In this document: one piece after another, positions 514 through 16,666 of the stretch | How positions within the stretch are numbered: the first letter of the stretch is position 1 | Layout of the letters: each line of letters begins with the position of its first letter | Assembly: GCA_024275415.1 (NCBI GenBank) | Contig: JAJRZD010000018.1 | Location: 1-31,535 of the forward strand | Source: an archaeon | GTDB taxonomy: Archaea > Asgardarchaeota > Thorarchaeia > Thorarchaeales > Thorarchaeaceae | DNA: 31,535 nucleotides | Reading direction: 5' to 3' | Program-made: the position numbers and the translations under genes | Notes under the pieces: model-generated | Told to the model about the DNA's origin: nothing | Databases searched by the model: none | The model's input: only the letters and a program-made list of their open reading frames with translations

Positions 514-595
514 CGGTAAGACTTGCTATGTCATAGTAACCTTAACAGACAAGCTTTCCAGTCATTCTACAAGTAAGAGTACCATGGTGAGGTCT

Positions 596-967
596 ATGAG
601 TCAATCACGCGGTGATACATTGGAAGGAGTGCTCAACGAGTTACAGGGGAGCATCCCAGAGATAGAGGCATGTGCGATAGTCAGTGTGGAGGGGTTACCG
701 ATTGTTTCTGCTCTCCCGAACGAGGTGGATGAGGCAAAGGTCGCAGCTATGACCGCCGCGATGCTCACCCTAGGGGAGAAGGCAGCTATCGAGTTAGGGA
801 AAGGGAACTTGGAACAAGTCCTCATCAAGGGGAATAATGGGTGGCTGATGGCCATTCAGGCAGGTCTTAATGCGTGCCTTACAGTATCCACGACCGAACA
901 GGCCAAGTTAGGTCTGGTCTTCCTTGACATGAAGCGTGCCGCTGATAAGATAGCAGAGATGATCTAG
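596..967 (+). CDS. Roadblock/LC7 domain protein (MglB-like)
   Basis: IEACAIVSVEGLPIVS, AAMTAAML, LEQVLIKGNNG and LGLVFLDMKRAADKI fit the Roadblock pattern. Start placed at ATG 596 behind GGTGAGG; the ORF track starts at 584. Confidence 0.9.
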   Translation: MSQSRGDTLEGVLNELQGSIPEIEACAIVSVEGLPIVSALPNEVDEAKVAAMTAAMLTLGEKAAIELGKGNLEQVLIKGNNGWLMAIQAGLNACLTVSTTEQAKLGLVFLDMKRAADKIAEMI

Positions 968-993
968 TCCGAGCAGCAAGATGATATCATGGG

Positions 994-1773
994 TTGTGCG
1001 GATCATTGAACATTGCAGGTCCAGTCTACAGACTGTATGAATGGTATCTACATCGCCAACTGGATGCTAACAGGAATCCTCGACACATCGGGCTTATTCT
1101 TGATGGCAACCGCAGGTATGCTCGTCTGGTGGGAGCAGAGGTTCCGTGGTATGGACACCATGCGGGAGCACACAAAGTCCTTGAGGTGTTGAGGTGGCTT
1201 TGGGAGGCGGGTGTCAAGGTATGCACCCTTTATGCATTCTCAGTGGAGAACTTCCAGCGTGCTCGGGAAGAGGTGGAGGAGATCATGAACATCCTCACCG
1301 AGAAGTTCGCGGATGTAATAAACAACCCAGATGTGAACCGTTACAAAGTACGGGTCAAGGCGATTGGACGAGTGGATCTTCTCCCAGAAAACCTCCAGCT
1401 AGCGATACGTGCAGCAGAGGATCAGACTGAGGACTATCAAGACTACCTTCTCAATATTGCTGTTGGATACTCAGGGCGGAGCGAGCTCGTGGACGCGGTG
1501 AAAGCGATTGGTCGCAAGATCCAGGAGGGCGTCCTTGCTCCCGATGACGTAGATGAGGACGTGATTGAGGATCATCTCTATACGAAGGACATTCCCGACC
1601 CGGACCTGATAATTCGGACATCAGGTGAAGAACGGCTATCGGGGTTCTTGCTCTGGCAGTCCGCTTATTCAGAGCTTTACTTCGAGCAGGTATACTGGCC
1701 TGCGGTACGCCGCATCGACATCTGGCGTGCGTTACGATCTTACCAACGGCGATCCCGACGATTTGGCAAGTAG
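994..1773 (+). CDS. uppS: cis-prenyltransferase (archaeal undecaprenyl/polyprenyl diphosphate synthase)
   Basis: Motifs HIGLILDGNRRYAR, GHHAG, TLYAFSVENFQR, PDPDLIIRTSGEERLSGFLLWQSAYSELYF and C-terminal RRFG. Exact start uncertain (TTG). Confidence 0.96.
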   Translation: MCGSLNIAGPVYRLYEWYLHRQLDANRNPRHIGLILDGNRRYARLVGAEVPWYGHHAGAHKVLEVLRWLWEAGVKVCTLYAFSVENFQRAREEVEEIMNILTEKFADVINNPDVNRYKVRVKAIGRVDLLPENLQLAIRAAEDQTEDYQDYLLNIAVGYSGRSELVDAVKAIGRKIQEGVLAPDDVDEDVIEDHLYTKDIPDPDLIIRTSGEERLSGFLLWQSAYSELYFEQVYWPAVRRIDIWRALRSYQRRSRRFGK

Positions 1774-1859
1774 GCTCAAGCAGTCCGTACGTGATACATG
1801 ATTATATAGTCCTATTCTCCAAGCGATACTTGAACCAGACTCGAGTATATAGGTCATGA

Positions 1860-3074
1860 ATGCGTCGAGGTCAAAACACCATGCCGAGAACGCCTGTTGA
1901 TGTCTACAGAGGTCTTATCCAAACGCGGTTGGGTGATGAAATCAAGAATAGCATCAGTAGGTTCGTGGCTCCTTTTTCCGTGATTCGTTTCATAGACGAG
2001 CCCCTGTCTGCCCATCTTTCCCGATTCATCAGTCTCATCAGCAGGCTAACAGCGTATCTGGATGCAAGGTATGTTGCAGGACGTGATGACCTTACCATCG
2101 CCATCGATGTCCTAGACCAGTTCACATCCACCTCCAAATGGTGGATTCTAGACAGACGAAGCCCTGGACTCGTGTTGCGTCCTCGTGTTCGAAACCCAAG
2201 GGAGTTCTTGCAAGAAACACGAATGGTCACACTGGGAGGTGCTACGCAATCAAGGATTGTGAATGCAGTAGAGAAGCTTCTGGCATTCTTGGTAGAACAG
2301 AAGATTGGTGACTCCTCAGTTCAACGGTTGTTATCAAAGTCCCTTGAATCTTCTTGGTATCTGTTATCCGCCCTTATCTGCAGGAATGAAGGACGGACTT
2401 CTACGGGTGAACATGATTTCGAGAGGGCATATGATACCATCCGCATCCTCCTCTTCTACACGACACTTGATGATCTTCGAGCACTGGTCGCTAGCAGAGA
2501 GATTGCCACGAGTCCGACAATTATCAAGGCAGCCAGCGTGTCGTTAGCCCCAGGATTCGAGAGGAACATAACCCACTCTGTCGCGGCCTATCTTGAAACA
2601 CAGCATGAGGAATATCTAGCAAAAGTTTCCCCTTCCAAACCCAGCGCCTCTCGGAATGTCCTTACGAATGCCCTTCGCTTTTTGACACAGCTGCAAGGTG
2701 TCGAACGTGAAAAAGATCGTGTCGAAGAAGACGAATATGAGGAGTTCATTCTAGGTTCGATACAGCAACTAGAACAGATTGGCATATCCGCGGACAATCT
2801 AAGTGATGAGGGTTCCGTCACCGAACTGTTCAAGAAACTGCGCCCAGCTGATGGGCTTAACGAACGGATTGACCTTTTGGTCAGACGGATCGAGAGAATC
2901 ATGATAGACGCTTCCGGCAACCGCGACTTCCTATTACAGAACTCTCGTTTCACAGCGCGTCTGCTGTCACTCCTCCTACTTGTGGCTGCTGGGACAAAGA
3001 CGGACTCTGGCAATCTTTCTGATTCCGACATCAAGAGAGGTCTTATTCTGGTTCACAATCTTCTCAGTGACTAG
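1860..3074 (+). CDS. Hypothetical all-helical protein with about four AAA+-lid-like repeats
   Basis: 404-aa ORF filling the gap; no P-loop. Repeated pattern: L..LTAYLDARYVAGRDDLTIAIDVL, LICRNEGRTSTGEHDFERAYDTI, and similar segments. Alternative start ATG 1881. Confidence 0.7.
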   Translation: MRRGQNTMPRTPVDVYRGLIQTRLGDEIKNSISRFVAPFSVIRFIDEPLSAHLSRFISLISRLTAYLDARYVAGRDDLTIAIDVLDQFTSTSKWWILDRRSPGLVLRPRVRNPREFLQETRMVTLGGATQSRIVNAVEKLLAFLVEQKIGDSSVQRLLSKSLESSWYLLSALICRNEGRTSTGEHDFERAYDTIRILLFYTTLDDLRALVASREIATSPTIIKAASVSLAPGFERNITHSVAAYLETQHEEYLAKVSPSKPSASRNVLTNALRFLTQLQGVEREKDRVEEDEYEEFILGSIQQLEQIGISADNLSDEGSVTELFKKLRPADGLNERIDLLVRRIERIMIDASGNRDFLLQNSRFTARLLSLLLLVAAGTKTDSGNLSDSDIKRGLILVHNLLSD

Positions 3075-3810
3075 ATGAGGATTTCGCATTGGGGTTGTCA
3101 ATGAGAATCCTCGCGTCCACCACAAGGACACCCTTTCCGCGTTCATACACAAATGTTGGATTGCAATCAATCTCATTGATCTCAGGGTTCTCATCGACCA
3201 TCTTTGATACTGCAAGGATGACCTTGACTAATGCATCGACATCTCTGGGATCCTCGCCTCTCACTCCATCAAGGATTTTGGCTGCCTTGATCTCACGCAC
3301 CATCTCTCTTGCATCGACCTCTTCCAAGGGAATCAGGCGGAACGTGACATCCTTCAACACTTCGACAAAGATACCGCCCAATCCGAACATAATAGCGTGT
3401 CCAAACTGAGGGTCTTTGGTGACTCCGATGATGACTTCTGTACCCATCTCCGCAAATTGGGTGATGAACACGCCACGACTGAGGTCGACCTCGATTCCCT
3501 TCTCTTCGCCGTATCTTTTCGCATTCGCCATGATCTCCTCAAATGCATCCCTGACTTCATCGTCATTCTTCAGGTTGAGCTTGACCCCGCCCGCATCTGT
3601 CTTATGCAAGATGTCCTTCGACAGGATTTTCAGGACCACCGGGTAACCAATCTCAGATGCCTTCGTGACGGCATCATCTGCAGTGGTCGCAGTCCCATAG
3701 GCTGGAATAGGCATCCCATACTCTTTCATAATGTCCTTGGCTTCGTGTTCAAGGACAAAGGTTCTGCCTTCAGACAATGCAGTTTCAAATATCTTCTTTG
3801 CCAGTTTCAT
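3064..3810 (-). CDS. acdB: ADP-forming acetyl/acyl-CoA synthetase beta subunit (ATP-grasp)
   Basis: VLEHEAK, IGYPVVLKILSKDILHKTDAGGVKL, EVIIG...DPQFGHAIMFGLGGIFVEVLKDV and EIDCNP...VDARI. Start moved to ATG 3810 behind a GAGGT RBS; the ORF track starts at 3828. Confidence 0.93.
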   Translation of the reverse strand: MKLAKKIFETALSEGRTFVLEHEAKDIMKEYGMPIPAYGTATTADDAVTKASEIGYPVVLKILSKDILHKTDAGGVKLNLKNDDEVRDAFEEIMANAKRYGEEKGIEVDLSRGVFITQFAEMGTEVIIGVTKDPQFGHAIMFGLGGIFVEVLKDVTFRLIPLEEVDAREMVREIKAAKILDGVRGEDPRDVDALVKVILAVSKMVDENPEINEIDCNPTFVYERGKGVLVVDARILIDNPNAKSSSSH

Positions 3811-3855
3811 GAATTTCAGACCTCTCAAGCCTGTTTGATGACCTACCTCTCTTAT

Positions 3856-5301
3856 TTATGATTTGTCAGCGCCGAATGTCTTTTTGAAGTCTTTGCCGTA
3901 TTTCACTTCTCCATATTGGGCGAGTGCTTTTGCAGCTAATGCCCCTTTCTCTCCTGTTGCATAGGTGGGCACTCCCATCAACTCCATGATTTCCCCTGCC
4001 TTGCTCGTGAAACTACCTCCCATCGATATTACCACGAATGGTTTCCCTGACTGCCGACTGTAATTTGCCAACCTATTAGTAATCTCCATACCGAGTGATG
4101 GTGTTTGCAATAACATTCCTACAATGAATATGTCGAACTCATCGCTTGCAATAGCCTCCTCGAAGACTACATCGTAACGTTCCGAACCTGCATCCCCCAC
4201 GACATCTATGGGATTCTTGACAGCGCAGTACGAAGGAAGGCGTTCATCGAAGCGTGCTTCAAGTTCTGGCGAGGGATGAGGCTGTGAGAGCCCAAGCGCC
4301 TCGATAGCGTCAGTCGTCATGACTCCGAGACCTCCACCATTGGTCACCATCAGAACCCTGTCACCTTTTGCGGGCGGCTGCATGGCAAGCGCCTTTGCCA
4401 TATCGAACATCTCCTCGAAGTTCCCTGCTCTGATAATCCATGCCTGTTTGTATGCTGCATCAGCGATATTGTCTGAGCCTGCAAGGGAGCCCGTGTGGGA
4501 CATCGAAGCCTCCTTGGCCCTAGCACCCCTTCCTGACTTTACGACAAGTATAGGTTTCTCTTTGGATATCCGTTTGGCTGTGTCGAAGAACGACCTCCCC
4601 TTGTCCTTGTCATACCCCTCGGTGTAGTAACAGATGACCTGTGTAGTGTCGTCTTGTCCGAGATAGCAAAGCAGGTCGTCATCATCAACATCAGCTTTGT
4701 TTCCTAGTGATATTATCTTGGAGATACCCAACCCCATCTCTGAAGTCCAGTCCGAGATTGCTGCCGCGAATGCGCCCGATTGTGAAACAAGGGAGATGTT
4801 TGCTACATTGCTCGGTCGGGGCCTCCCGCATCGGTACTCTGGCAGAAAGAAAGTATCAATATGCGATAGTGTATCAATCACGCCTACACAATTCGGACCA
4901 ATGATTCTTATCCCATGCTTACGTCCAATCCTTACAATTTCGTCTTCGAGTTCGGCACCGCGCGGGCCGGTTTCAGAGAAGCCACCGGATACGACTATCG
5001 CAGCTTTTGATCCCTTTGCAGCGATATCCTCGAAGATGCGTGGGGTAATACGTGCAGGAACCGCCACAACTACCATATCAACAGGGTCTGGGATAGCCCC
5101 AAGGGTCGGATAGCAAGGTACTCCAAGGACATTCGAATATTTGGGGTTCACCGCATAGATTTTCCCCTCATATTGGGGTTTCAAGAAGTTCTGGACAATC
5201 GCCTGTCCTACGCTATTGGGGCTTGGTGATGCCCCATAGATGGCAACGCTCTTCGCATGGAAAAAGACATCGATATCTTCTAGGTTAGCACAAGATGCCA
5301 A
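3856..5301 (-). CDS. acdA: ADP-forming acetyl/acyl-CoA synthetase alpha subunit
   Basis: CoA-binding domain (SVAIYGAS, VNPK, GFSE, RIIGPNCVG), SQSGA, LGNKADV and the phospho-His motif SHTGSLAG. The first ~170 aa of the 651-aa ORF overlap the radical SAM gene and are not homologous. TTG 5301 (or GTG 5304) follows GAGGTGA. Confidence 0.93.
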   Translation of the reverse strand: MASCANLEDIDVFFHAKSVAIYGASPSPNSVGQAIVQNFLKPQYEGKIYAVNPKYSNVLGVPCYPTLGAIPDPVDMVVVAVPARITPRIFEDIAAKGSKAAIVVSGGFSETGPRGAELEDEIVRIGRKHGIRIIGPNCVGVIDTLSHIDTFFLPEYRCGRPRPSNVANISLVSQSGAFAAAISDWTSEMGLGISKIISLGNKADVDDDDLLCYLGQDDTTQVICYYTEGYDKDKGRSFFDTAKRISKEKPILVVKSGRGARAKEASMSHTGSLAGSDNIADAAYKQAWIIRAGNFEEMFDMAKALAMQPPAKGDRVLMVTNGGGLGVMTTDAIEALGLSQPHPSPELEARFDERLPSYCAVKNPIDVVGDAGSERYDVVFEEAIASDEFDIFIVGMLLQTPSLGMEITNRLANYSRQSGKPFVVISMGGSFTSKAGEIMELMGVPTYATGEKGALAAKALAQYGEVKYGKDFKKTFGADKS

Positions 5302-5430
5302 CACACTCACCTCTTTGGTTGACGAGCCTGTGTTCGAAATCGGGCATTTGCTGTACTTGTAGCTTGCCATATGGTATCTTGTCGGATGCCGAAACACAAC
5401 ATTCAAACCAGCATCCGTTGAGGCTCTTGT

Positions 5431-6453
5431 GTGACATTCGCTATCCTTGAAGACGGCCCGGACGTTCTCAACAGTGTGCCTGATGAATATGAGATGTGGC
5501 TGTCGAAGGCATTCCAGATACGACGTACTTATTTCCAAGATACCCTGTACTGCTACAGCCCAACAGGATATCCCTATAGAATCCCTGCCCACGGACATAC
5601 GAATCCCCATAATTTCGCATCGTTGAGCGTGACAGGCACATCCTGCTCGTTGCACTGTGACCACTGCGATGCCAAGCTCCTGAAGGGGATGGAATCCACC
5701 ATAACCCCTGAGCAGCTGTTCCATGCCTGTCAGAAAGTCAAGGAACGTGGAGGAGAAGGTGTTCTGATCAGTGGAGGATCTGACACACAGGGACATGTCC
5801 CTCTTGACCAATTCATTGATGCCATCAAGGCCGCGAAAGAAAAATTAGGTCTCAAAGTTGTCGTCCACACAGGTATTGTGTCGGAGGAAACAGCCATTGC
5901 TCTGGGTGAGTCAGGGATTGACGCAGCAATGCTGGATATCATCGGGGACGATGTCCTAGCACAACAGGTCTATCATCTGGAGGAGGGATCTGCACGGATG
6001 GCAAAGTCCCTTGATGTCCTGAAAGAGCAAGGCATACCAATTGCTCCTCATGTGCTTGTAGGGCTGAACTATGGCACACTCACTGGTGAGCTGGAAGCAT
6101 TGGACATGATTGCCTCAAGGAACCCCGATGCAGTGGTCATCATTGCATTGAATCCCCTTCCCAAGACACCTATGGCAAATGTGTCACCCCCGACTCCCGA
6201 GATGATTGGGCGGATCATGACCATAACGAGGCTCGGTCTGCCCCGTACCCCATTACTTCTAGGGTGTGCACGCCCTATCGGAGATCACAAGGTTCAGACC
6301 GATCTACATGCGGTCAAGTCAGGGATGAATGGGATTGCCTACATCAGTCAGGAAGGAGTAGATGCCGCCCAAGAATTAGGGCTTTCACCAGTCTTCAAGG
6401 ACATCTGCTGTAGTCTGGCTCCTATCGACTTGTCTTCTGAGTCATCTCCATGA
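5431..6453 (+). CDS. lipS1: Radical SAM protein, archaeal lipoyl synthase subunit LipS1-like (biotin synthase-related)
   Basis: CxxxCxxC (CSLHCDHC) preceded by SLSVTG; GVLISGG; C-terminal GCARP and DICCS match the GC(M/A)R and CC auxiliary-cluster motifs described for Thermococcus LipS1. Confidence 0.75.
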   Translation: MTFAILEDGPDVLNSVPDEYEMWLSKAFQIRRTYFQDTLYCYSPTGYPYRIPAHGHTNPHNFASLSVTGTSCSLHCDHCDAKLLKGMESTITPEQLFHACQKVKERGGEGVLISGGSDTQGHVPLDQFIDAIKAAKEKLGLKVVVHTGIVSEETAIALGESGIDAAMLDIIGDDVLAQQVYHLEEGSARMAKSLDVLKEQGIPIAPHVLVGLNYGTLTGELEALDMIASRNPDAVVIIALNPLPKTPMANVSPPTPEMIGRIMTITRLGLPRTPLLLGCARPIGDHKVQTDLHAVKSGMNGIAYISQEGVDAAQELGLSPVFKDICCSLAPIDLSSESSP

Positions 6454-6691
6454 AACAGACTGCCGAGGTGTCTGCGATGGATCAACAGGGAATGTCCTCT
6501 AATTTGGCCCACGTTGCGTTTCTGTTCAACAACGGGGACTATGGTGTGGCAGAGGAACTCTCATAGGGATGCAGCAACGTTTCAAGGCTGGAGTCCAAGA
6601 AGTGCATGGTACGTCTGAGGGGCATTACGAAGAACCACGTGATATTGGATCGGCTGATACGTATGTACTTTGTGAATTTCGTGTGATAGTG

Positions 6692-7249
6692 TCAGTCCTC
6701 TTCTGTTGTTCGAACTTGTTTCATGAGAACATCAGCTATTTCGTATCCCAAATCGAACATCCACAGTCCAATCGCTGCAGGTAGGAACCCACTCCAAGGT
6801 ATTGCCAATAGCACTGCTGTGACCTTGAGGGTGAAGCGGTGTTCGAAGAACAAGTATGTGAACGGGTTCACACCCTTATCAATCCAATTCGTTCCTTTTT
6901 CATCAAGCACTGCTGCCATGAAGAGTATGATGAGAAGTGAAGCTCGCTCTAATGGTTCTGTCACCTGTGGCATGTCGACAAGAAGCAAAGCCACTCCTAT
7001 CATCACGAACCCGATGATGAACTCCTTCCTGTTCACTTTTCCGGATAAGATGACCCCAATGACAATTGAACCAAGGAGTACTAAATCCCATTCGCTTGTG
7101 GACATAAGTGTCCCAAACAGGAACCCCGACAATGCAAGAGGGCCCCATGCCAGAGAGGGTGCCTCCATCTCATCGAGGAGATCATCCCCGACCTTGAGCG
7201 AAAGTCCTGCGGCGAGATATGCTCCAAGGTATATTGTCCAATCTATCAT
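6692..7249 (-). CDS. Hypothetical multi-pass membrane protein
   Basis: About 185 aa with roughly six hydrophobic segments and a KVGDDLLDE loop. ATG 7249 chosen; TTTAAA near 7284-7289 could be its promoter. Confidence 0.75.
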   Translation of the reverse strand: MIDWTIYLGAYLAAGLSLKVGDDLLDEMEAPSLAWGPLALSGFLFGTLMSTSEWDLVLLGSIVIGVILSGKVNRKEFIIGFVMIGVALLLVDMPQVTEPLERASLLIILFMAAVLDEKGTNWIDKGVNPFTYLFFEHRFTLKVTAVLLAIPWSGFLPAAIGLWMFDLGYEIADVLMKQVRTTEED

Positions 7250-7437
7250 ACAGACCACTCAGCAGCCTACGCATTCACCGACTTTAAACTGGCGATAAGA
7301 GTCTCGACCTATCGCCATTATGAAGGTACCTTCTCAGCCTAACCATGATTCAGCATACGAGGAACTCCTCTCTCAGTTAGCCAAATATCATCATCGAAGG
7401 TTACCAAGTATGGATTACTGTTCGCCCTTTCATAAAG

Positions 7438-7653
7438 TTATATGATTAGCAATGATGCCTCAACAAGTGTGATAATTGGTTTGGTTGTTAGATGGGGTCG
7501 CATCACATCGGCGTCTTCGAGATGTAACTCTAGGGGTTCCTTGAGGTTTGCAAAAGATTCCTCTATCGTTTTTCCATGACTTGCCACATCCACATCAGGA
7601 GCAAGAGCCACGTATAAACTTCCTTCTCGAATCACAACCGCTGTGAATAGCAT
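7438..7653 (-). CDS. hicB: HicB-like (UPF0150) antitoxin-family protein
   Basis: FTAVVIREGSLYVALAPDVDVASHGKTIEESFANLKEPLELHLED matches the HicB-like consensus 'YVAxxPxLxxxSQGxTxEEAxxNLKEAxELYLE'. Start ATG 7653. Confidence 0.8.
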   Translation of the reverse strand: MLFTAVVIREGSLYVALAPDVDVASHGKTIEESFANLKEPLELHLEDADVMRPHLTTKPIITLVEASLLII

Positions 7654-7808
7654 CCATATCAACACCAGTGTCACCACGATTCATATTAGCCTTTGTCACT
7701 TACAACAAGGATAATCTAGCATTACTGAGGAATCTGAGAATCATGACAGTCCCATATTCCAGACTCGAATCAGCACGACTCGTTATCGCTACCGTTGATT
7801 GAAAGTTG

Positions 7809-7823
7809 GACAAACCTGGACAT
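7809..7823. repeat. Terminal inverted repeat, tnpB-proximal end (GACAAACCTGGACAT)
   Basis: Exact reverse complement of 8870-8884; shares base 7823 with the tnpB stop codon. Confidence 0.9.
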
Positions 7824-8854
7824 CAGGCAGTCCGTCCAGCAACGGCACTGGACTTGGTGTCTTGCACGTGGATGATGTTCCGTGCCGCGTTCACGTCGGC
7901 ATGGGAGTGCTCGTCACACTGGGGACAGTAGAAGTACTCCCCTCCTTTCCGCTCCGTAGTGGAGGTCATGCCCTCCACCCTGACACCACGTTCTCCGCAG
8001 ACATGACAGGTCTGGGAGGTGTATCGTGGACTCACCGTCCACACACTGTACTTTGAGTGACCCAGGGACTCCCTCATGTACCGCACGGTGTCGATGACCT
8101 TCCCCCACAGGTTGGAACTCAGGTCGTAGGACAGGTCACCTGACCCTGCGTGCCCCTGGAAGCTCCTCAGGTCCTCGAAGTAGACGGTCTTCACATGATG
8201 CGCCTCACAGAACCACACCACCTTCGAAGCAACGACCCTGGCCACTTCCCGGTCAAGACGACGTACCTTCCTCCACAGGGCGGCAATGTGACGTCCCTTC
8301 TTGAGGACGTGCCCTGGGTATGACTGTCCTGGCCGTTTGCGATCCCAGTTGTCCTTCTTCCTGGTGACCTCTGAGGTGAGGCGGTATGCCTGTTTCCTGA
8401 GAACCGTCCGTTTCCGTACCAGGTGACCGGTGTCCACCATGAGCTCGTGGTACTGGTCACCCTCCTCCACGGAGACCACCACGGGAAACCTGAGTCCCCT
8501 GTCCACCCCGGCCCTGGTGGTGTACGCACGTCCCCCAAAGGCCTTCTCCAGAAGCTCCTCGTCAGGGGCAAGGAACGGTACCTGTAGGGTGACCCTACTC
8601 CCTCTCAGGAGAATACGCGGTGGGGCACTCCGCCTGGCGTCCTTCAACTCCGAGGCCTCTGCCTGAAGCTGGATGATCTCCTCTGGGTCGGTGTTCTTCC
8701 TCTGTTTGAAACGTGCGAGCCTGTCACGGTGGGTGACGATGATGGTGTGGATGGCCCCCTGAGTTTCCCAGACCGGTCCCATCGGTGGATGGTCTTGACA
8801 CACACCCCGAGCATGAGGGCTGTCTGTAATACTGAGGACATACACGGTTCTCAA
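7823..8854 (-). pseudogene. tnpB: N-terminally truncated TnpB (RNA-guided RuvC nuclease family) fused in frame to a TnpA fragment
   Basis: RuvC-I RAGVDRG, RuvC-II VYFEDL, zinc finger TSQTCHVC...CPQC and RuvC-III HADVNAARNI. The TnpB-like part spans about 8707-7823; residues 33-49 (GAIHTIIVTHRDRLARF) are TnpA-derived. Confidence 0.88.
8708..8841 (-). pseudogene. tnpA: IS607 TnpA (serine recombinase) fragments
   Basis: ATG 8841 gives TALMLGVCVKTIHRWDRSGKL (MerR-like HTH typical of IS607 TnpA). In another frame IIVTHRDRLARF follows. The catalytic YARVS motif is absent. Confidence 0.8.
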
Positions 8855-8869
8855 GGCAGTATATAATGA

Positions 8870-8884
8870 ATGTCCAGGTTTGTC
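8870..8884. repeat. Terminal inverted repeat, tnpA-proximal end (ATGTCCAGGTTTGTC)
   Basis: Exact reverse complement of 7809-7823. A TTATATAC TATA-like box lies just inside it on the minus strand (about 8859-8866). Confidence 0.9.
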
Positions 8885-9034: not shown

Positions 9035-9598
9035 TCACTTGTACATTCGCTTCAGAATTACTTCCCGTGCAATTGCCTGAAATGCCCTCTTCACTCCGAC
9101 TCCTTGTAACGCGATCGTCTCATAGATAGGTACGTTGCTTCCAAGTCCAAGCAGGTCAAGCATCTCGTCACGTGACATCCTATTTGGCAGATCCCTCTTG
9201 TTGAGCATAACTACGATAGGAATGTTCCGCCCAAGATCGTCACCAAGAAACATCTTCAGCTCCTCGAAACTCTCCGTGTTCTCCTCTCGTTGATCAGGTG
9301 AGGAGTCCGCAACGAACAATATCCCATCTGTGCCCTGGAGTACCACCTTTCGTTGATGTTTGTGACGCTTCTGCCCAGCCACAGTGAAGACATCAAAGAG
9401 TACACGACCACCTGCGCTCATTGGAACATAGTCAAAAAATAGCGTGCGATTTGTTTCGTCCTCGATCGCCGTGAACTCGCCTTTTTGTAGTCCTTCGACC
9501 TTACCATAAAGCCATCGAAGTGCAGTAGTCTTACCACCTAACGAAGGGCCATAGAATACCAACTTCAAATGTATCCTGCCTTGATCATCCTTGCGCAT
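9035..9598 (-). CDS. mglA: MglA-family small GTPase
   Basis: KLVFYGPSLGGKTT (G1), RTLFFD (intrinsic Arg finger, switch I), FTVAGQ (G3), DGILFVADS, NKRD (G4) and GVGV; colinear with Myxococcus MglA. ATG 9598 follows GAGGTG; the ORF track starts at 9673. Confidence 0.93.
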   Translation of the reverse strand: MRKDDQGRIHLKLVFYGPSLGGKTTALRWLYGKVEGLQKGEFTAIEDETNRTLFFDYVPMSAGGRVLFDVFTVAGQKRHKHQRKVVLQGTDGILFVADSSPDQREENTESFEELKMFLGDDLGRNIPIVVMLNKRDLPNRMSRDEMLDLLGLGSNVPIYETIALQGVGVKRAFQAIAREVILKRMYK

Positions 9599-9741
9599 GT
9601 TGATGCACCTCTTCGAATCGCGATTAATATCGGTCCACAAGCTCGACACACAAGGAGCAGCGAGATGCTCCAAGCACCAGCCAAGTGGGGGAGGTTAAAT
9701 GAGATAGAAAGACAGTCTCATAAAAGCATTGCCTGAGCATA

Positions 9742-9763
9742 CACACCAATGGGAGTTGGTGTG
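9742..9763 (-). terminator. Hairpin downstream of the MglB-like gene (putative terminator or stabiliser)
   Basis: CACACCAA-(6 nt)-TTGGTGTG, a perfect 8-bp stem about 20 nt after the stop at 9785. Confidence 0.45.
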
Positions 9764-9784
9764 GAGAGGTGGTGGGAGCCATTC

Positions 9785-10246
9785 CTACACACGTTCGAGC
9801 TCTTCAAGAGCAGATTTGAGGTCTTCCTCATCGAGTTCGTCCTTCCCAGGCATGGGTTCGACAGCAAGGAACTTGTCAAGTTCTTCTGCGAGTTGAACTC
9901 CCTGTTTCTTCATCACCAGACGAATCATGCCGATGTTCACCTCTGCTTCGGACACGACGCAAAGCACACCTTTTCCGCAGGCGGATGCGAATATCTTGCC
10001 CCCTGAGAACTCGGAGGTGACGATTTCGAGTTCACCAATCTGCAGGTTCTTCCCTTGTTCTTCACTTGCACAAAACACGGCACTTGCAATCGCTCCGATA
10101 CTATCAGTGTCCACTACGAAGGCAGACAGCTTGCTTACGTTGGCTATTGTCAAGCCAGTTTTGTCCACTAGTATGCATTTTTTGACGCCTTTATCTTGGC
10201 GGATGATTTCGGTCAGAATCTTATCAAAGACCTTTGGCTCAGACAT
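9785..10246 (-). CDS. mglB: Roadblock/LC7 protein, MglB-like, with acidic C-terminal helix
   Basis: CILVDKTGLTI, DTDSIGAIASA and NIGMIRLVMKK, plus the tail DELDEEDLKSALEEL resembling Myxococcus MglB 'EITDDDIDNLF'; adjacent to mglA. Confidence 0.85.
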   Translation of the reverse strand: MSEPKVFDKILTEIIRQDKGVKKCILVDKTGLTIANVSKLSAFVVDTDSIGAIASAVFCASEEQGKNLQIGELEIVTSEFSGGKIFASACGKGVLCVVSEAEVNIGMIRLVMKKQGVQLAEELDKFLAVEPMPGKDELDEEDLKSALEELERV

Positions 10247-10261
10247 CTTGATTTGGCTCCT

Positions 10262-10582
10262 TCATTCATTGTTCTTTAGGACCACAAGGATGAGGCCCTC
10301 TTTTGGTTCTGGTGCGATGTTGATCTGGCCCTTCGAGGTGTCGAGGGTCAGGAACGACAGGTTTCCTTCCTTGAGTTCGCGCACGGCGTCCATGGCCTTG
10401 CCCACAAGAGAGGTAATGATAGCTGCGACGGATTCTGTGGTATCAGGGTCGATGTCACTGCTGAGAGGCAAACCTTCCATGGTAGTGACGACGACACCGC
10501 GGACACCTTCTTGTGCCCGTAGCCTCTGAAGAATGGCTTGGAGTTTTTCTTGACTTATCAAATTTGGGAATCCCCGCTGCAA
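10262..10582 (-). CDS. Minimal Roadblock/LC7 domain protein
   Basis: [26 protein letters not shown] and [15 protein letters not shown]. The real start may be TTG 10561. It ends 15 bp before the MglB-like gene. Confidence 0.88.
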
Positions 10583-10713
10583 TCTTGTGCAATTCGCAAT
10601 GAATACCTCTCGTCGGAGTATTTTAGAGTTACGGATATGAATTCCGTTTTACTAATAGTTTTTGCGCATTCTGATATACTCTTGTATTCCTACAATAAGA
10701 CAGGGGTCTGATG

Positions 10714-10745
10714 AAAAAAGAGGGAGCGACGTAGTCCATCGCTCC
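10714..10745 (-). terminator. Hairpin plus U-tract terminator after the zinc finger-vWA gene
   Basis: Minus strand GGAGCGA-(9 nt)-TCGCTCC followed by CTCTTTTTT, starting 12 nt after the stop at 10758. Confidence 0.65.
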
Positions 10746-10757
10746 TTGAGAGGATTG

Positions 10758-12383
10758 TTATTCCTCTTCGTCTTCCTTGAACATCTCTTTCGAGCTCTTG
10801 CGCATCTGGGCGAATCCTGCTGTGTATGCCTCGTCAGCGGCTGCAGATGGCGCCATCGAGGATCCACCTGCGACCATCTCCTCCATCCGTTCGAGTTCTT
10901 CCTCCTCGGCTTCAAGTGCCTCCTCGACCTTCTCGTACTGTGCCTGATTGGCCATGGGTGCACTTTTAGCGCGGAATCTCAATGCAGACCTGAAGGCAGC
11001 AATTCGTTTTTTGCCCTTCTTCCTGTCGCCAGAGAATGACTCTTCGCCTGCCTTCTGGGTGACGTAGGTAGCTCCAAGGGTCGGGTCAAGGGTCTCCAGC
11101 ACCTCGCTCTCCTTCTTTGTTACCTTGAGGCGTGCAGTGACTGCCCTGACCCTACGAGAGCCTTCCTCATCCGTGTACTCGACCTGCACCTGAATGGGCA
11201 CCTCGGAGTCTTTGATTTCGCTCTCTGGTACCACCTCGAAATAGAGTTCGTGATTCTCACCGACTACGCCAATCTTGCTCTCCTTGTTCTTTGTCAGCTC
11301 GTCGATGACGGCTCGGGAAACCCCAGAAGCATCTTTGACCTTCACACCTTGTGGTGTGATGATCTTGACTTGGACATCCCGACCGAGAAGGCGAGATCCT
11401 GCGAGTTCGGAGATGCTCTTATCGAGTTCGTTAGGTGTCACATAGAACATATTACCGCCCGTCGCTTCGGGTAAAAGGCCTAGTGTCTTTAGTTCCATGC
11501 CCGCACCAGACGCGATACCGACGACATCGACTGCAGTTCCGATATCCATAAAGGCCTTGCCCAGTTGTTCATAGAACTGACTAGCAGGGGTCACTTGATA
11601 TCCTTCCAACGCCCCAATCCCTTCGTTTGCAAGCCCATCCGTAAGTAACACGACTCGTCCGACATTGCGATGCTTTGCAATCACGGATGCCATCGCCACG
11701 GCAGGGCCGAGGGCAGTGCCACCCTGATCCATCAACGATCGCACATATGACTTGAGTTTGTCAGAGTTCTTCCCTACTTGGACAAGCTTGACCTTGTCCA
11801 ACAGGCGTTTTGTTTCTTCCACTATCCGTTCGTAGCTGGAAAAAGCCTCATATGGGAGCTGTATTGCATTCCCAGATTCCAAGTCCCGATAGACGACACT
11901 ACTCTCGAACTCAATGAGTCCAAAGAAGGTGTCAGGGGAGTTTGCTGCAAGGCTGTCGATTGAGGTGTTCAGGCTCCGTTTGACAGCAGCTAGGTTCTCA
12001 CCTGCCATGGAACCAGACACGTCGATAAGCGCGAGGAATGCTTGACCCCCCACCGGAATCGTACTGGTTTCAGAATCTGTCGTTTGCGGGGGTTGTTCGA
12101 TAACGAAATCTGTGTCATCACCAGCAACGATGACCTCTCCTGTGATGACGTTCAAAGTCCCACAGAACGCGCATATGAAATGGCGTCCAATTTTTTCATC
12201 CTCCTTGACCTGATCAGCACTGATGAGGAACCCGCCACATTTCTGACACACGATGGGTTTCCCAACTATCTTTGCGGTGTCACTGGCAAGTTCACCAAAT
12301 TCCACTCTCAGGACATAAGGTATATCGCTCATTATCTTCTTGGATGCTGGAAAAGATTCAGAGCTGGTTCGTAGCATAGGCAT
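10758..12383 (-). CDS. Sec23/Sec24-like protein (zinc finger + vWA/trunk + beta-sandwich + helical tail)
   Basis: CQKC...FICAFCGTLN zinc finger; vWA motifs ALIDVSGSM, GGTALGPA and VVLLTDGLANEGIG; IQVQVEYTDEEGSRRVRAVT resembles Sec24 'QxALLYTxxxGERRIRVxT'. GGAGGT RBS before ATG 12383; alternative start 12332. Confidence 0.75.
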   Translation of the reverse strand: MPMLRTSSESFPASKKIMSDIPYVLRVEFGELASDTAKIVGKPIVCQKCGGFLISADQVKEDEKIGRHFICAFCGTLNVITGEVIVAGDDTDFVIEQPPQTTDSETSTIPVGGQAFLALIDVSGSMAGENLAAVKRSLNTSIDSLAANSPDTFFGLIEFESSVVYRDLESGNAIQLPYEAFSSYERIVEETKRLLDKVKLVQVGKNSDKLKSYVRSLMDQGGTALGPAVAMASVIAKHRNVGRVVLLTDGLANEGIGALEGYQVTPASQFYEQLGKAFMDIGTAVDVVGIASGAGMELKTLGLLPEATGGNMFYVTPNELDKSISELAGSRLLGRDVQVKIITPQGVKVKDASGVSRAVIDELTKNKESKIGVVGENHELYFEVVPESEIKDSEVPIQVQVEYTDEEGSRRVRAVTARLKVTKKESEVLETLDPTLGATYVTQKAGEESFSGDRKKGKKRIAAFRSALRFRAKSAPMANQAQYEKVEEALEAEEEELERMEEMVAGGSSMAPSAAADEAYTAGFAQMRKSSKEMFKEDEEE

Positions 12384-12422
12384 CCACTAATACCTCCAAA
12401 ATAATAGAGGCTCATTGATTTG

Positions 12423-12478
12423 AAAGGTATTAAGTGGTTCGACGACGAAGTTGACCATGTCATAGAGGAATATTTAAG
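12423..12478. promoter_or_regulatory. Back-to-back TATA boxes for the divergent vWA and roadblock genes
   Basis: CTTAATAC on the minus strand (about 12426-12433) and TATTTAAG on the plus strand (12471-12478), each about 45 nt from its start codon. Confidence 0.45.
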
Positions 12479-12525
12479 CCAGTCAGGAGTATGTGTGAAA
12501 AAGGGACCTCTAAAGGTGATGGGAA

Positions 12526-12891
12526 ATGGTTGACAAGGCGAAAATCGAACAGATAGTAAGCGAAACTATGGGTGCTAACGCAGAGATTCAGGGAATCGTC
12601 GTATGTGATGCCAAGGGGAAAGTCATCTTTGGCCACACTATATCCGACGGAGTCAATCAGGACGATATTGCCAAGCTGATAGTGAAGATTTCTGTGAACT
12701 CCTCCCAGTTGGTCGCAGGAATAGACATGGGAGGGCTGAAGGAAATGACCATCGCCGCTGAGCAGGGGTATGTCTTCATTCTTGGAGATGTCAAGATGAT
12801 TCTTGCAGGGCTAGCAGGAGAAGGAGCTAGGGAACAGGCTGGTCTTATCCGAATGGCGCTAAAACGCGCTCTGGTTTCCATGTTGGAATAG
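12526..12891 (+). CDS. Roadblock/LC7-like domain protein
   Basis: IQGIVVCDAKGKVI, LKEMTIAAEQGYVFI and AGLIRMALKRAL give the helix-beta-beta-helix-beta-beta-beta-helix Roadblock pattern; followed by a T6 tract near 12918-12923. Confidence 0.8.
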   Translation: MVDKAKIEQIVSETMGANAEIQGIVVCDAKGKVIFGHTISDGVNQDDIAKLIVKISVNSSQLVAGIDMGGLKEMTIAAEQGYVFILGDVKMILAGLAGEGAREQAGLIRMALKRALVSMLE

Positions 12892-13075: not shown

Positions 13076-15178
13076 TTGGTCCATATTGAGAAGCTAGTCT
13101 GCAAGGGCTTCAAATCGTTTGGACGGGATTCTGTAACTATCAGGATGAATAGGGGATTCACATGCATCGTCGGGCCTAATGGCTCTGGGAAGTCCAATGT
13201 CATAGACGCGATACTCTTCGTCTTGGGGCAGCTCAGCGCAAAGACACTCAGGGCCAATGTATTCTCAGACCTTCTGTACTCGCCACCGAAGCCCGATATG
13301 CCGCCAAAAGCAAAGACCGCCGTTGTAGAATTGCATTTCAATAACAAGGACAGGAAGCTCCAAGTAGATGCAGACAAGGTGGTCATTGAGCGCCAGCTGG
13401 ATGATTCTGGGAAATCTACATGCAGGATAAACGGGAGGGTCGTGACACGGCAGGCGGTCCTTGATGTCCTCGGGAGCATCGGAGTAGATCCAAATGGATA
13501 CAATCTGGTGCTTCAGGGCGAGATTGCCCAAATGGTCAAAGTAAGTCCTAATGATAGGCGAAAACTCATCGAGGAGATTGCAGGAATATCAGCATACGAT
13601 GAGCAGAAAGAGCGCGCCCTTAAAAAACTCGCAGAAAGCGAAACGAACCTCGGGAAGGTAGAAACCCAGCTTATCGAGCGTAGGCGCCAATTAGAAAAAC
13701 TGGAGTTGGAGAGAGAGGATGCTATCCGGTTCATGGATGCGAAAAATGAGATCCAGCGAATCGAGATAGATCGGCTTGCGTGGACCATAATCAAGGGGCG
13801 TAACAGGATTGCTGTCATCAATGAAACTCTTGCAGAACGAGCCGAAGAGGCTGAGAGGCTTGTGCGCGAGCTTGAGGAAGTCGAACATAAGCAAGGGGAA
13901 GTTGAGTTCGAGATTGAGAGCATTGATGCAGAAATAGATCGGATTACAGGAGGCGACTCCGCGAGGATATCTGAGAAATATGGACAAGCATTGGCTGCTG
14001 TCAGTCACCTCGAAGGAGAACTCGACCGTGCACGAAATGAGCTTGAGAAGTATCTCCGACAGAAAGAGGAGATTATTGAGGAAACAAAACTTGTACAGAG
14101 TCAAATATCCAGTGCTAAGGAGAAAATAGCCTCCAAGGAAAACGAGTTGGTCGATCTCGACAAAGAAATAGAGGAGTGCCAGCATCAGATCCAGAGGATG
14201 GAAGAACGGTTTGAGAAAGAGCAATCCAACTATTATGAGAATGCTCAGCGATTGCAAGAACTGAACAACCAGATGGTTGCATTGGACGAGGGTGTTTCTG
14301 AAATTCGGTCATCTATCAAATCAGATGGTAGAGAACTGGGACTAGCATATGAGGAACTTCAAGATTCTCAGCGTTCTCTTGAAGAATCCCAAGAGGAACT
14401 CGAAGAACTCAAAATTCTGTTGCCTGAAAGAAAACAACAGCTTGAGGAGAACATCAAACTTGAGGAAACCAAGCGAGCTGAACTGGAGGAGCTCAAGGCG
14501 CGTCAGGAACGTATCGACAAGGAGGCGGATGAGGCAGCACGTATAGTCAGCGAAACAAGAGAAGAATTGATCAGGATACAGGCAAGGCAAGACGCACTGA
14601 AGGATGCAGAAGAGGCATTCCTGAAAAGAAGGAGGGCAATCTCGAGAATCCTTAAACTCCGAGACGCAGGTGAAATCGAGGGAATTCATGGTACTGTGGC
14701 AGAACTTGGCAAAATCGACCCAGAGTATATCACAGCGATGGAGGTCGCTGGAGGAAACCGACTTTCGCACATCGTTGTTGATGACGAGACTGTAGCCACA
14801 CAATGTATCAATGTGCTCAAGAGGGAACGAGTCGGCAGGGCATCATTCATCCCGCTAAACAAAATCAAATCACGGACACCGGGCAAGCTCCCGGCAGATA
14901 TGAGAGTGCTCGGCTTCGCGATAGACTTGGTCGAGTTTGACCAGAGATTCCAGCCAGCATTTCAATATGTGTTCCAAGACACTGTGATAACTGAGGACTT
15001 TGACACCGCAAAACGGATTGGGTTTAGCAAGTACAGAGCGGTGTCTCTTGAAGGCGATCTTGTAGAACGTACTGGGCTCGTTACTGGGGGACATTTCCAG
15101 AGATCTGGTGCAGGCCTCTCACTTCAAGTGGAAGATAAAAGTCCAGATGTTGCACGACGTTTACAGGGCTTGGAATAA
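13076..15178 (+). CDS. smc: SMC chromosome segregation protein, N-terminal part (head, coiled coil, hinge), ended by an in-frame TAA
   Basis: GFKSFG, Walker A GPNGSGKSN, VLQGEI; hinge GIHGTVAEL, RASFIPLNKI and GDLVERTGLVTGG. The frame continues past TAA 15176-15178 into the next ORF. Confidence 0.93.
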   Translation: MVHIEKLVCKGFKSFGRDSVTIRMNRGFTCIVGPNGSGKSNVIDAILFVLGQLSAKTLRANVFSDLLYSPPKPDMPPKAKTAVVELHFNNKDRKLQVDADKVVIERQLDDSGKSTCRINGRVVTRQAVLDVLGSIGVDPNGYNLVLQGEIAQMVKVSPNDRRKLIEEIAGISAYDEQKERALKKLAESETNLGKVETQLIERRRQLEKLELEREDAIRFMDAKNEIQRIEIDRLAWTIIKGRNRIAVINETLAERAEEAERLVRELEEVEHKQGEVEFEIESIDAEIDRITGGDSARISEKYGQALAAVSHLEGELDRARNELEKYLRQKEEIIEETKLVQSQISSAKEKIASKENELVDLDKEIEECQHQIQRMEERFEKEQSNYYENAQRLQELNNQMVALDEGVSEIRSSIKSDGRELGLAYEELQDSQRSLEESQEELEELKILLPERKQQLEENIKLEETKRAELEELKARQERIDKEADEAARIVSETREELIRIQARQDALKDAEEAFLKRRRAISRILKLRDAGEIEGIHGTVAELGKIDPEYITAMEVAGGNRLSHIVVDDETVATQCINVLKRERVGRASFIPLNKIKSRTPGKLPADMRVLGFAIDLVEFDQRFQPAFQYVFQDTVITEDFDTAKRIGFSKYRAVSLEGDLVERTGLVTGGHFQRSGAGLSLQVEDKSPDVARRLQGLE

Positions 15179-15286
15179 ATCCTAGCTGATGTTAGGGAGC
15201 AGCAAGAGGATATCAGGAACAGACGAAAAAGCATTGAGAGGGAGATAGAAAGACTCTCACAGATCAATTACAGAGATCAACTAGAG

Positions 15287-16666
15287 GTGGAACATCTTCA
15301 AGAGAAATACGATGACAAGATTGCGCGAGTCCAGACACTCACTGAGAAGATTGATACTGCACGAAAAACAATCGAAGCACTCGAAGTGCAGGTGAAAGAG
15401 CTTCGCGAAAGAGATAGAGAAATCAGTGAGCAACGAGAGGCTGTTAGAGCCCTTCGTGACGCGGCGAACGAGGCACTTGCCGTTTCGGATGCCAGCAAGA
15501 TCAATCAGGAGATAAAGGATCTGAAAGAAGTGGTTGAGCATCAAAAACGCAAACGAGAAACACTAACAGGTGAACTCACAGGATTAAGGGTCGCACTTGA
15601 AGAGAGACTCGTTCCTAAATCTACAGAGCTTGAGATGCGGTATCAATCGCTGCTTACCATCCTTCCAAGTCAAGAAGAGGAAGTCAAGAGGCTCGAAGAT
15701 GAATTCAATGAGAGGAAGGAGAGCCTTGAATCCCTTAAGATGAAGAGGGATGAGATAGAGGACGAGGTCAAGGACAAACGCGTCCGGCAGATCCAACTCA
15801 AGGAGGAATTCAGAAATCTTCGTTTGCGCCACGAGGAGATTCGTGAGAAACAAACGGCAAATGAGAAGTCGGTATATCGTTTACAGACAGAGCAATCACG
15901 TCTCGAAACAGACCTTGTTGCATTCATGGCACAGTTGTCATCGATGGCTGATGCCGAGGAGGAACTTGCAAATCGTGAGAACCGTGAGGAGCTGACGTAC
16001 AGGCAAATCGAGAAGCTTGAAGAGAAAATCAAGGAGTTAGAGCGAGAACAGGAAGCGATTGGTGCTGTCAATCTCAAGTCACTTGAGGATTATGATATAG
16101 AGAGGGGCAAGTACGACGAGATCGTGGATAAAAAGACCAGACTAGAGGAGGAACACAAGGAGATTCTTGCATTCATGGAAGAACTTGAGGCCGAGAAGAC
16201 AAAGAAATTCCTTGAGGTGTATAACGAGATTGCGGATAACTTCTCAAAGGTCTTTGCAAAATTGTCGCCAGGCGGAGAAGCAACCCTGATGCTTGAGAAT
16301 CCCGAGCATCCACTGATGGGTGGCATCACGGTGAGGTCAAAACCAAGAGGGAAAGAACTCGTCAGCTTGGATGCGATGAGTGGAGGCGAAAAGACCCTTA
16401 CAGGTCTTGCACTGATCTTCGCTATCCAAATGCATAGTCCAGCAAGTTTCTATGTCTTTGATGAGATTGATGCGGCATTAGATGATGTGAACGCACACAA
16501 TGTTGCTAACCTAATCTCAGAGTTGTCAAAATCGTCCCAATTCATAGTCGTTTCTCTCAGACAGCCCACGTTCAGGAAAGCAGACCTCCTTCTAGGAGTG
16601 TCAAGTCATGATGGACTCTCTAAGATTCTGTCCGTTGATCTGGAGGAGGTTGCAGAGGCGACATGA
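15287..16666 (+). CDS. smc: SMC C-terminal part (coiled coil and C-head); same reading frame as the N-terminal part
   Basis: GAVNLKSLEDY, signature MSGGEKT and Walker B/D-loop VFDEIDAALD. The gap 15179-15286 is 108 nt of open coiled-coil-like sequence, so 13076-16666 is one ~1196-codon gene with one stop. Confidence 0.9.
   Translation: MEHLQEKYDDKIARVQTLTEKIDTARKTIEALEVQVKELRERDREISEQREAVRALRDAANEALAVSDASKINQEIKDLKEVVEHQKRKRETLTGELTGLRVALEERLVPKSTELEMRYQSLLTILPSQEEEVKRLEDEFNERKESLESLKMKRDEIEDEVKDKRVRQIQLKEEFRNLRLRHEEIREKQTANEKSVYRLQTEQSRLETDLVAFMAQLSSMADAEEELANRENREELTYRQIEKLEEKIKELEREQEAIGAVNLKSLEDYDIERGKYDEIVDKKTRLEEEHKEILAFMEELEAEKTKKFLEVYNEIADNFSKVFAKLSPGGEATLMLENPEHPLMGGITVRSKPRGKELVSLDAMSGGEKTLTGLALIFAIQMHSPASFYVFDEIDAALDDVNAHNVANLISELSKSSQFIVVSLRQPTFRKADLLLGVSSHDGLSKILSVDLEEVAEAT

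Follow-up and report, generated by a model that had tools for sequence, protein, structure and literature searches.

Gene content of the locus

The stretch of DNA analysed here (the window) comprises 31,535 nucleotides (nt) of contig JAJRZD010000018.1 (C120 in our numbering), part of a metagenome-assembled, 3.5-Mb genome that is 92.9% complete and belongs to an Asgard archaeon of the family Thorarchaeaceae (assembly GCA_024275415.1). It carries a gene for an MglA-family small GTPase, several genes for Roadblock proteins, and a gene for a protein with a zinc finger and a von Willebrand factor A (vWA) domain that resembles the coat subunits Sec23 and Sec24 (hereafter the vWA gene and the vWA protein; Table 1). 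A preliminary description of the window had listed five of these genes, three of them Roadblocks, and had proposed that MglA may act as a switch on the Sec23/24-like protein. All five genes were found at the positions and in the order given there. The three Roadblocks are real, but the module has four, the fourth (RB4) lying apart from the others at 584-967 on the plus strand. Asgard families are referred to by f numbers, f1 being Thorarchaeaceae, the window's own; G and L numbers denote genomes and loci.

Across its 3.5 Mb, the whole genome contains 16 open reading frames (ORFs) for Roadblocks and about 35 for small GTPases. Because 4 of the 16 Roadblocks are on the window contig, their clustering at the locus is not a matter of chance.

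Table 1. Positions and strands of the genes and predicted signals discussed in the text (window coordinates; lengths in amino acids, aa)
Feature	Position	Strand	Remarks
mglA, MglA-family small GTPase, 187 aa, single domain	9035..9598	-	
RB153, MglB-like Roadblock, 153 aa	9785..10246	-	
RB106, short Roadblock of the dynein-LC7/RBLC7 type, 106 aa	10262..10582	-	15 nt upstream of RB153
Sec23/24-like zinc-finger/vWA gene, 541 aa	10758..12383	-	
RB121, Roadblock, 121 aa	12526..12891	+	divergent from the vWA gene; adjoins smc
RB4, fourth Roadblock of the module, 127 aa	584..967	+	displaced and inverted in the window genome
mglA upstream region	9606..9727	-	TATA-like block GCTTTTATGAGAC (9727-9715) and GAGGTG ribosome-binding site (9611-9606)
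Putative promoter region of the RB106-RB153 unit	10618..10671	-	GAATGCGCAAAA (10671-10660) and TATA-like CTCTAAAATAC (10628-10618)
Terminator-like hairpin and T-run directly after the vWA stop codon	10745-10713	-	9 pairs, 6 of them G-C, followed by CTCTTTTTTC
Divergent intergenic region, 142 nt	12384..12525	.	A/T-rich TATA-like elements facing the vWA gene and RB121, read from the sequence
smc	13076..16666	+	SMC_N and SMC_hinge domains; synteny control, outside the switch
ORF of a TnpB-type insertion sequence (IS) element	7823..8854	-	Pfam Cas12f1-like_TNB, 55.6 bits, and OrfB_IS605; at the inversion junction

The GTPase is an MglA with intact catalytic motifs

The closest solved chains to the GTPase are the MglA proteins of Myxococcus xanthus and Thermus thermophilus (E = 7e-39 to 9e-37, best match 136 bits), whereas its match to Arf is far weaker (E = 1.6e-12). 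An assignment to the Arf-like GTPases, which gave the top Pfam match, was rejected on this difference, and the earlier identification of the protein as a genuine MglA stands. Alignment with 23 orthologues places the start codon at ATG 9598 (MRKDDQGR...) and not at TTG 9673. Four segments are invariant in the resulting set of 24 orthologues: the P-loop GPSLGGKT, R51-T52, T72-V-A-G-Q76 and NKRD. The third of these is a G3 motif of the TxxGQ form, in which Thr replaces the usual Asp and the catalytic Gln is present, and R51, the intrinsic switch-I arginine, lies in a segment (NRTLFFD) that aligns with DRTLFFD of M. xanthus MglA. Sequence identity of MglA to its orthologues is 90-98% across f1 and 59-66% in other Asgard families.

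The N-terminus of the protein consists of about ten mostly charged residues (MRKDDQGRIH) before the first strand, and the 24-orthologue alignment contains no N-terminal amphipathic helix of the kind used for membrane insertion. It is a single-domain protein of 187 aa and so carries no Roadblock domain at its C-terminus. The end of RB153 is 186 nt upstream of mglA, and in most Asgard families checked the RB153 gene is the one directly upstream of mglA. Two further MglA paralogues are encoded in the window genome (G000), at C127:21068-21883 (51% identity) and C43:61091-61672 (37% identity); a 315-aa Roadblock-domain ORF lies 0.9 kb upstream of the latter.

Four distinct Roadblock proteins accompany MglA

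Three of the four Roadblocks score well above the Pfam Robl_LC7 cut-off of 23 bits (RB153, 41.1; RB106, 62.2; RB4, 60.7). RB121 falls slightly under it (20.5 bits) but is confirmed by an iterated Roadblock profile (E = 5e-43) and by the solved Roadblock 9jq8 (E = 1e-6). RB153 matches solved MglB over residues 13-135 (E = 2e-4), scores 23 bits against the NCBIfam MglB equivalog model, for which the cut-off is 200, and ends in an acidic C-terminal extension of about 45 aa. RB106 is close to the solved chain 7f8f (E = 3e-27) and to the eukaryotic dynein light chain Roadblock (E = 3e-14). Pfam also reports above-cut-off matches of RB106 to LAMTOR5 (30.2 bits) and of RB153 to MAPKK1_Int (LAMTOR3; 28.9 bits), which may reflect only general Roadblock similarity. 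RB4 was found with the iterated Roadblock profile; its closest solved chain is 7f8m (E = 5e-24), and it shares 78% identity with the gene next after mglA in locus L043.

Two irregular Roadblock genes were seen in relatives. In L022, a length difference of 1 nt puts the two parts of the RB106 orthologue (9833-10121) in different frames, probably through a sequencing frameshift. In genome G120 (f16), the RB153 orthologue (L078:6915-6990) contains a 31-nt frame-breaking insertion relative to the intact gene of G117. The flanks of this insertion can pair into an 11-bp helix round an internal loop, with an inner hairpin (-28 kcal/mol, z = -2.85), a predicted fold that could be that of an intron of the bulge-helix-bulge type, here inside a gene for a protein.

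The vWA protein is a Sec23/24 homologue

The vWA protein was confirmed as a real member of the Sec23/24 family. It matches Pfam Sec23_trunk (PF04811) at 48.4 bits (cut-off 27) and Sec23_BS (PF08033) at 31.6 bits, slightly under the cut-off of 33.5. A profile of its family aligns with solved Sec24 from the zinc finger to position 469 (E = 1.4e-25). In Foldseek searches with the predicted structure (pLDDT 88), the top matches were all Sec24 or Sec23 (E = 1e-30 to 1e-26, TM-score 0.63-0.72), with ArnAB next in the ranking (E about 4e-15). The protein comprises a four-Cys zinc finger, a vWA/trunk domain, a beta-sandwich and a helical region. The strands of the beta-sandwich occupy residues 332-422 of the model and fall inside the Sec23/24 alignments, and helices occupy residues 425-535, with no Pfam match to Sec23_helical. 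No gelsolin domain was found, either as a Pfam match or in the model, which ends at residue 541 in helices only; the protein therefore lacks a Sec23-type arginine finger.

In 32 homologues, both the zinc-finger cysteines (C46, C49, C71 and C74) and a complete metal-ion-dependent adhesion site (MIDAS; D121-x-S123-x-S125, T223 and D249) are invariant. Together these motifs point to a metal-dependent protein-binding scaffold. The last MIDAS Asp is lost in the alignment with yeast Sec24 but the motif is complete in the Asgard family, which hints, at the level of conserved residues, at a metal-dependent ligand binding no longer used by the eukaryotic coat proteins. The gene is the sole match in the 3.5-Mb, 92.9% complete genome, a single paralogue and not a Sec23 and Sec24 pair. 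The closest named relatives of its product are in Candidatus Thorarchaeota; it is 73% identical to a protein of Thorarchaeota SMTZ1-45 listed by NCBI as 'SEC24 family transport protein'. When the vWA protein was modelled in complex with MglA, GTP and Mg, the score was 0.00, which counts neither for nor against binding.

Across Asgard families the MglA-Roadblock module occurs apart from the vWA gene

Among 400 Asgard genomes, 330 encode an MglA orthologue and 147 the Sec23/24-like gene. We fetched 40 further vWA loci, 35 of them from f2, f13, f14, f16, f19-f23 and f30 and five from divergent members of f1. Neither the MglA orthologue nor its Roadblock set lay within about 7 kb of the vWA gene in any of the 35 loci outside f1, and the same was true of two of the five divergent f1 loci, that of G315 and that of a second, divergent copy in G391. 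The closed genome G117 has its vWA gene 860 kb away from the MglA module. The expected synteny of the vWA gene with mglA thus holds in about 60 f1 genomes and fails in every family outside f1 (35 loci).

We then fetched the surroundings of the MglA orthologue from 25 genomes. The full block of divergent RB121, RB106, RB153, MglA and RB4 is present without a vWA gene in f2, f6, f14, f16 and f33; together with f1, these are the families in which the RB121 orthologue is divergent from RB106. RB121 stands beside smc in f2, f14 and f16, as in f1, and the four Roadblocks of f6 and f33 stand without it. Also without a vWA gene, f4 and f15 have RB106, RB153, MglA and RB4 but no RB121, and f9 has two Roadblocks around MglA. 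Reduced forms of the module occur in f11 and f8, and MglA is alone in f21 and f22. In all, the Roadblock order round MglA is the same, with no vWA gene, in at least eight other families, seven of which hold three or four Roadblocks. Each Roadblock position best matches the same window paralogue, which argues for four old paralogue lines in a fixed order. The Roadblock genes are therefore conserved genomic partners of MglA, which supports this part of the earlier interpretation. A structural study of Asgard Roadblock proteins states that the cultured Lokiarchaeon MK-D1 does not, as a rule, keep its small GTPase genes in one operon with Roadblock genes (PMC10933270), and the solitary MglA genes of f21 and f22 fit this.

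No neighbour of the vWA gene was conserved across the other families, genes for FHA proteins, kinases and phosphatases included; the only cluster found in three families was scattered. A maximum-likelihood tree built from 53 vWA proteins agrees with the division into families and places f1 as the sister of f2 (98/95 support). This placement indicates vertical inheritance, so that a single move into the cluster explains all f1 cases.

Linkage, loss and relocation of the vWA gene within Thorarchaeaceae

Within f1, the order vWA-RB106-RB153-MglA is kept wherever the contig allows in 12 species-level loci found with the vWA protein, 10 of which have RB121-smc on the other side. In 59 further f1 genomes, the vWA gene and mglA are on the same contig, 1.1 to 4.9 kb apart, as judged by comparing match coordinates in phylum-wide searches; most other f1 genomes end at contig edges. 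These loci keep their unrelated flanks equally well: smc to one side, and to the other uppS, a 404-aa ORF and a pair made up of an ATP-grasp gene and an acetyl-CoA-synthetase-like (ACS-like) gene. The adjacency of the vWA gene therefore does not stand out from that of the region as a whole.

Three genomes have departed from this arrangement. Only the last 30 vWA codons remain between RB121 and RB106 in G392; the vWA gene is gone from G389 (98% complete), with a breakpoint directly upstream of RB106; and in G315 it is on another contig, yet this copy nests within the f1 clade. All three keep RB106-RB153-MglA-RB4. MglA of G392 is 94% identical to that of the window, as in G394-G396, which keep the vWA gene, and MglA of G389 is 90% identical, as in G387 and G388. 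The vWA gene was thus lost twice and moved out once, and each time the MglA-Roadblock module stayed intact and equally conserved.

The minus-strand genes have separate predicted transcription signals

The minus-strand genes are predicted to form at least three transcription units, not one operon, and the separate conserved promoter blocks before RB106 and before mglA bear out an earlier caution that this is a cluster. Both blocks upstream of mglA are invariant in 10 family loci, the remaining spacer varying in length, and both are also present in the vWA-less clusters L075 and L083; in two species (L015 and L022), the RB153-mglA spacer carries insertions of 1.7-2.3 kb. Upstream of RB106, GAATGCGCAAA and, about 40 nt ahead of the start, the TATA-like CTCTAAAATAC are likewise invariant in 10 family loci. 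The clusters of G315 and G392, which lack the vWA gene, have the same blocks ahead of RB106 and of mglA. Outside this site, the window contains no copy of GAATGCGCAAAA with fewer than two mismatches, and the motif is no more frequent than chance predicts; this motif search gives no sign of co-regulation of RB106 with the vWA gene or mglA. The terminator-like hairpin reported after the vWA gene is present, with nine pairs and a T-run; hairpin and T-run sites in the region are not above shuffles (3 found, 3.9 expected).

A probable composite of an ancient switch and a family-specific insertion

We consider it likely that the locus combines two things of different origin: an ancient Asgard switch made of MglA and four Roadblocks, and a separate, family-specific insertion of a known Sec23/24-like gene. 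The switch, common to many Asgard families, would consist of one MglA and the four paralogues RB121, RB106, RB153 and RB4. By homology with bacterial MglA-MglB, the GTPase-activating protein of this MglA is most likely a Roadblock dimer that binds the GTP-bound form; RB106 and RB153, whose genes are only 15 nt apart, are for that reason the first candidate pair. The remaining two Roadblocks would most likely pair with each other and scaffold or tune the switch, by analogy with MglC in Myxococcus or with the LAMTOR pairs of Ragulator. The Sec23/24-like gene would have moved once, at the base of Thorarchaeaceae, into the divergent promoter gap between RB121 and RB106, and with its own putative promoter and terminator-like end would since have been carried along in a generally syntenic region. 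The proposed role of MglA as switch of the Sec23/24-like protein is left without support: the two genes are unlinked outside f1, their linkage goes back to one insertion event, and the module persists without the vWA gene.

A different account confines the partnership to Thorarchaeaceae, where the Sec23/24-like protein would have been captured as an effector or cargo adaptor that MglA-GTP recruits or releases, with Roadblock dimers as GAP/GEF or as platform, forming a proto-coat with MglA in place of Sar1 or Arf; were this true, the coupling of a coat to a GTPase arose more than once. The stable slot and orientation in about 60 f1 genomes speak for it, as do precedents within the superfamily for a GTPase partnership, Sar1-Sec23 and the fusions of circularly permuted Ras with vWA (cpRAS-vWA; PMC2430557), and MglA, having an arginine finger of its own, would not need the gelsolin/arginine-finger domain of Sec23. 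However, the synteny stems from one evolutionary event and is matched by that of unrelated flanks, other families with both genes keep them apart, and in genomes that have lost or relocated the vWA gene both the module and the conservation of MglA are unchanged. [quoted passage not shown] We regard capture as an MglA effector as unlikely. Very improbable, in our judgement, is a variant in which the protein binds a Roadblock and not MglA, its MIDAS taking, for example, an acidic residue of the RB153 tail so that the platform tethers it. The MIDAS is complete and invariant, the acidic C-terminal helix of RB153 is conserved in the family, and the genes are neighbours, but the same tail is equally present in families whose cluster lacks the vWA gene, and the synteny objections apply here as well.

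The module might alternatively work with the SMC-ScpAB condensin, for instance in the polar or spatial control of chromosome segregation, with the vWA gene a bystander. RB121 is head-to-head with or beside smc in f1, f2, f14 and f16, and scpA and scpB come after smc in the window. Set against this, f4, f6, f15 and f33 have no smc gene within 6 kb of the module, and adjacency to a housekeeping gene is weak evidence. We know of no MglA system that acts on SMC, and we hold this role to be improbable.

Several observations weigh against an ancient switch joined by an unrelated insertion. While the vWA protein diverged to 50-54% identity, about 60 f1 genomes kept its gene in the same slot and oriented like RB106-RB153-mglA, a stability that selection for co-location could explain. 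There are also isolated cases outside f1 in which the vWA gene has a gene for a Roadblock or a small GTPase directly upstream (f19 and f22) or close by, in f21 (1.1 kb, convergent) and in two f13 genomes (about 4 kb). With about 51 Roadblock and GTPase genes per approximately 3,500 genes, and about 22 genus-level lineages, a few chance adjacencies are expected; the isolated neighbours in f13, f19, f21 and f22 are roughly what gene density predicts, and we did not take them as linkage. Finally, when 1.84 billion proteins were searched, 17 of the best 150 representatives proved to be fusions of an N-terminal Ras-like domain with the zinc-finger/vWA module. Those that have a name are "circularly permutated Ras protein 1-like" proteins from animals and protists, members of the cpRAS-vWA family already described (PMC2430557). 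The module has thus paired with Ras-superfamily GTPases more than once (Sar1-Sec23 and cpRAS).

Discussion of what preceded the COPII coat includes the Sec23/24-like proteins of Asgard archaea as forerunners, and to our knowledge the zinc-finger/vWA module has never been known to partner MglA. The linkage is limited to one archaeal family and rests on one lineage-specific gene move; the position of the gene is therefore no proof of a primitive coat machine and should not be cited as proto-coat evidence. The solid part of the locus is a matched MglA with four old, distinct Roadblock paralogues that many Asgard families have kept together. In a published study of one cultured Asgard archaeon, small GTPases could mostly not be paired with their regulators by gene order (PMC10933270), and the MglA-Roadblock module supplies such a pairing. 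The set bears on the origins of the dynein-Roadblock and Ragulator platforms, and its hosts belong to the closest archaeal relatives of eukaryotes. No paper on the four-Roadblock MglA block or on its juxtaposition with a Sec23/24-like gene was found in a literature search that left most subscription journals outside.

Local rearrangement and neighbouring genes

The order RB153, MglA, RB4, UppS and 404-aa ORF is kept in all 12 related loci checked, followed in all 12 by an ATP-grasp gene and an ACS-like gene on the opposite strand; the vWA gene precedes RB153 in 9 of the 12. In these relatives, RB4 is normally directly downstream of mglA. In the window, the block from about 584 to 7300 is reversed in order and strand relative to all 12 loci. 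The inverted segment of about 8 kb (584-8884) contains RB4, uppS, the 404-aa ORF, the ATP-grasp gene, the ACS-like gene and a 188-aa ORF, and the TnpB-type IS element (7823-8854) lies at its junction with mglA; it is the inversion that separates RB4 from mglA. The element is absent from this site in relatives, with one fragment elsewhere in L022. The reversal is either an IS-associated inversion or an assembly artefact, and the separation of RB4 is correspondingly peculiar either to the window genome or to its assembly. A 79-aa ORF (7438-7677, minus strand), flanked by the IS element and the inverted block, has no Pfam match and by eye resembles an antitoxin fold of the HicB-like type.

The smc gene is broken by a single in-frame TAA at 15176-15178, its halves being in the same frame. 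The gene is an unbroken 1196-aa ORF in the relatives L043, L057 and L058, and the break is thus particular to the window genome; it could reflect an error in sequencing, a nonsense allele of recent origin or a gene that has split.

Comparison with known systems

The vWA protein shares the coat-subunit fold of COPII Sec23/24 (Foldseek E = 1e-30, TM-score 0.63-0.72), and in both systems a small GTPase is at hand, here encoded nearby. COPII differs in having a gelsolin domain and a Sec23-Sec24 pair, as against a single gelsolin-less paralogue, and in using an Arf/Sar1-family GTPase, as against an MglA that has no amphipathic helix and is linked in one family only; its MIDAS is partly lost in yeast Sec24 and complete here. 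The Asgard Sec23/24-like proteins characterized previously (PMC11914678) belong to the same family, with a zinc finger, trunk, beta-sandwich and helical region and no gelsolin domain; in that work they showed no effector behaviour towards an Asgard Arf. The strings 'neighbo', 'operon' and 'synten' do not occur in the text of that paper, and both the position of such a gene in an MglA-Roadblock cluster and its restriction to one family are new from this analysis.

Two further systems contain the vWA module. The archaellum regulators ArnA-ArnB of Sulfolobus (PDB 8s05; PMC12852372) have the same core of vWA, beta-sandwich and helical domains (Foldseek E = 4e-15), but the match is much weaker than that to Sec23/24, the zinc finger is supplied by ArnA and not in cis, and, unlike in ArnA-ArnB, no FHA partner, kinase or phosphatase gene was found at the locus. 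The C-terminal half of eukaryotic cpRAS-VWA proteins (PMC2430557) is the same zinc-finger and trunk vWA module (phmmer E about 1e-22 to 1e-31); there, in eukaryotes, the GTPase is a circularly permuted Ras fused in cis and not an MglA.

On the side of the switch, the Ragulator-Rag system (LAMTOR2-5 with RagA/C) resembles the locus in arranging several full-length and truncated Roadblock folds round a small GTPase. Its GTPases carry a C-terminal Roadblock domain, which MglA does not, and no LAMTOR1-like anchor was identified at the locus. The nearest parallel in GTPase family is MglA-MglB(-MglC) of M. xanthus and T. thermophilus, a coupling established in prokaryotes, including systems with two MglBs (PMC4316618, citing Koonin and Aravind 2000). 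No RomR-, RomX- or Frz-type partners were seen at the archaeal locus. Both systems have a GTPase with TxxGQ, the switch-I arginine and NKxD, adjacent Roadblock-fold partners and accessory Roadblock paralogues; they differ in host and in number, one or two Roadblocks in the bacterial systems against four, including a short dynein-LC7 type, in the archaeal one.

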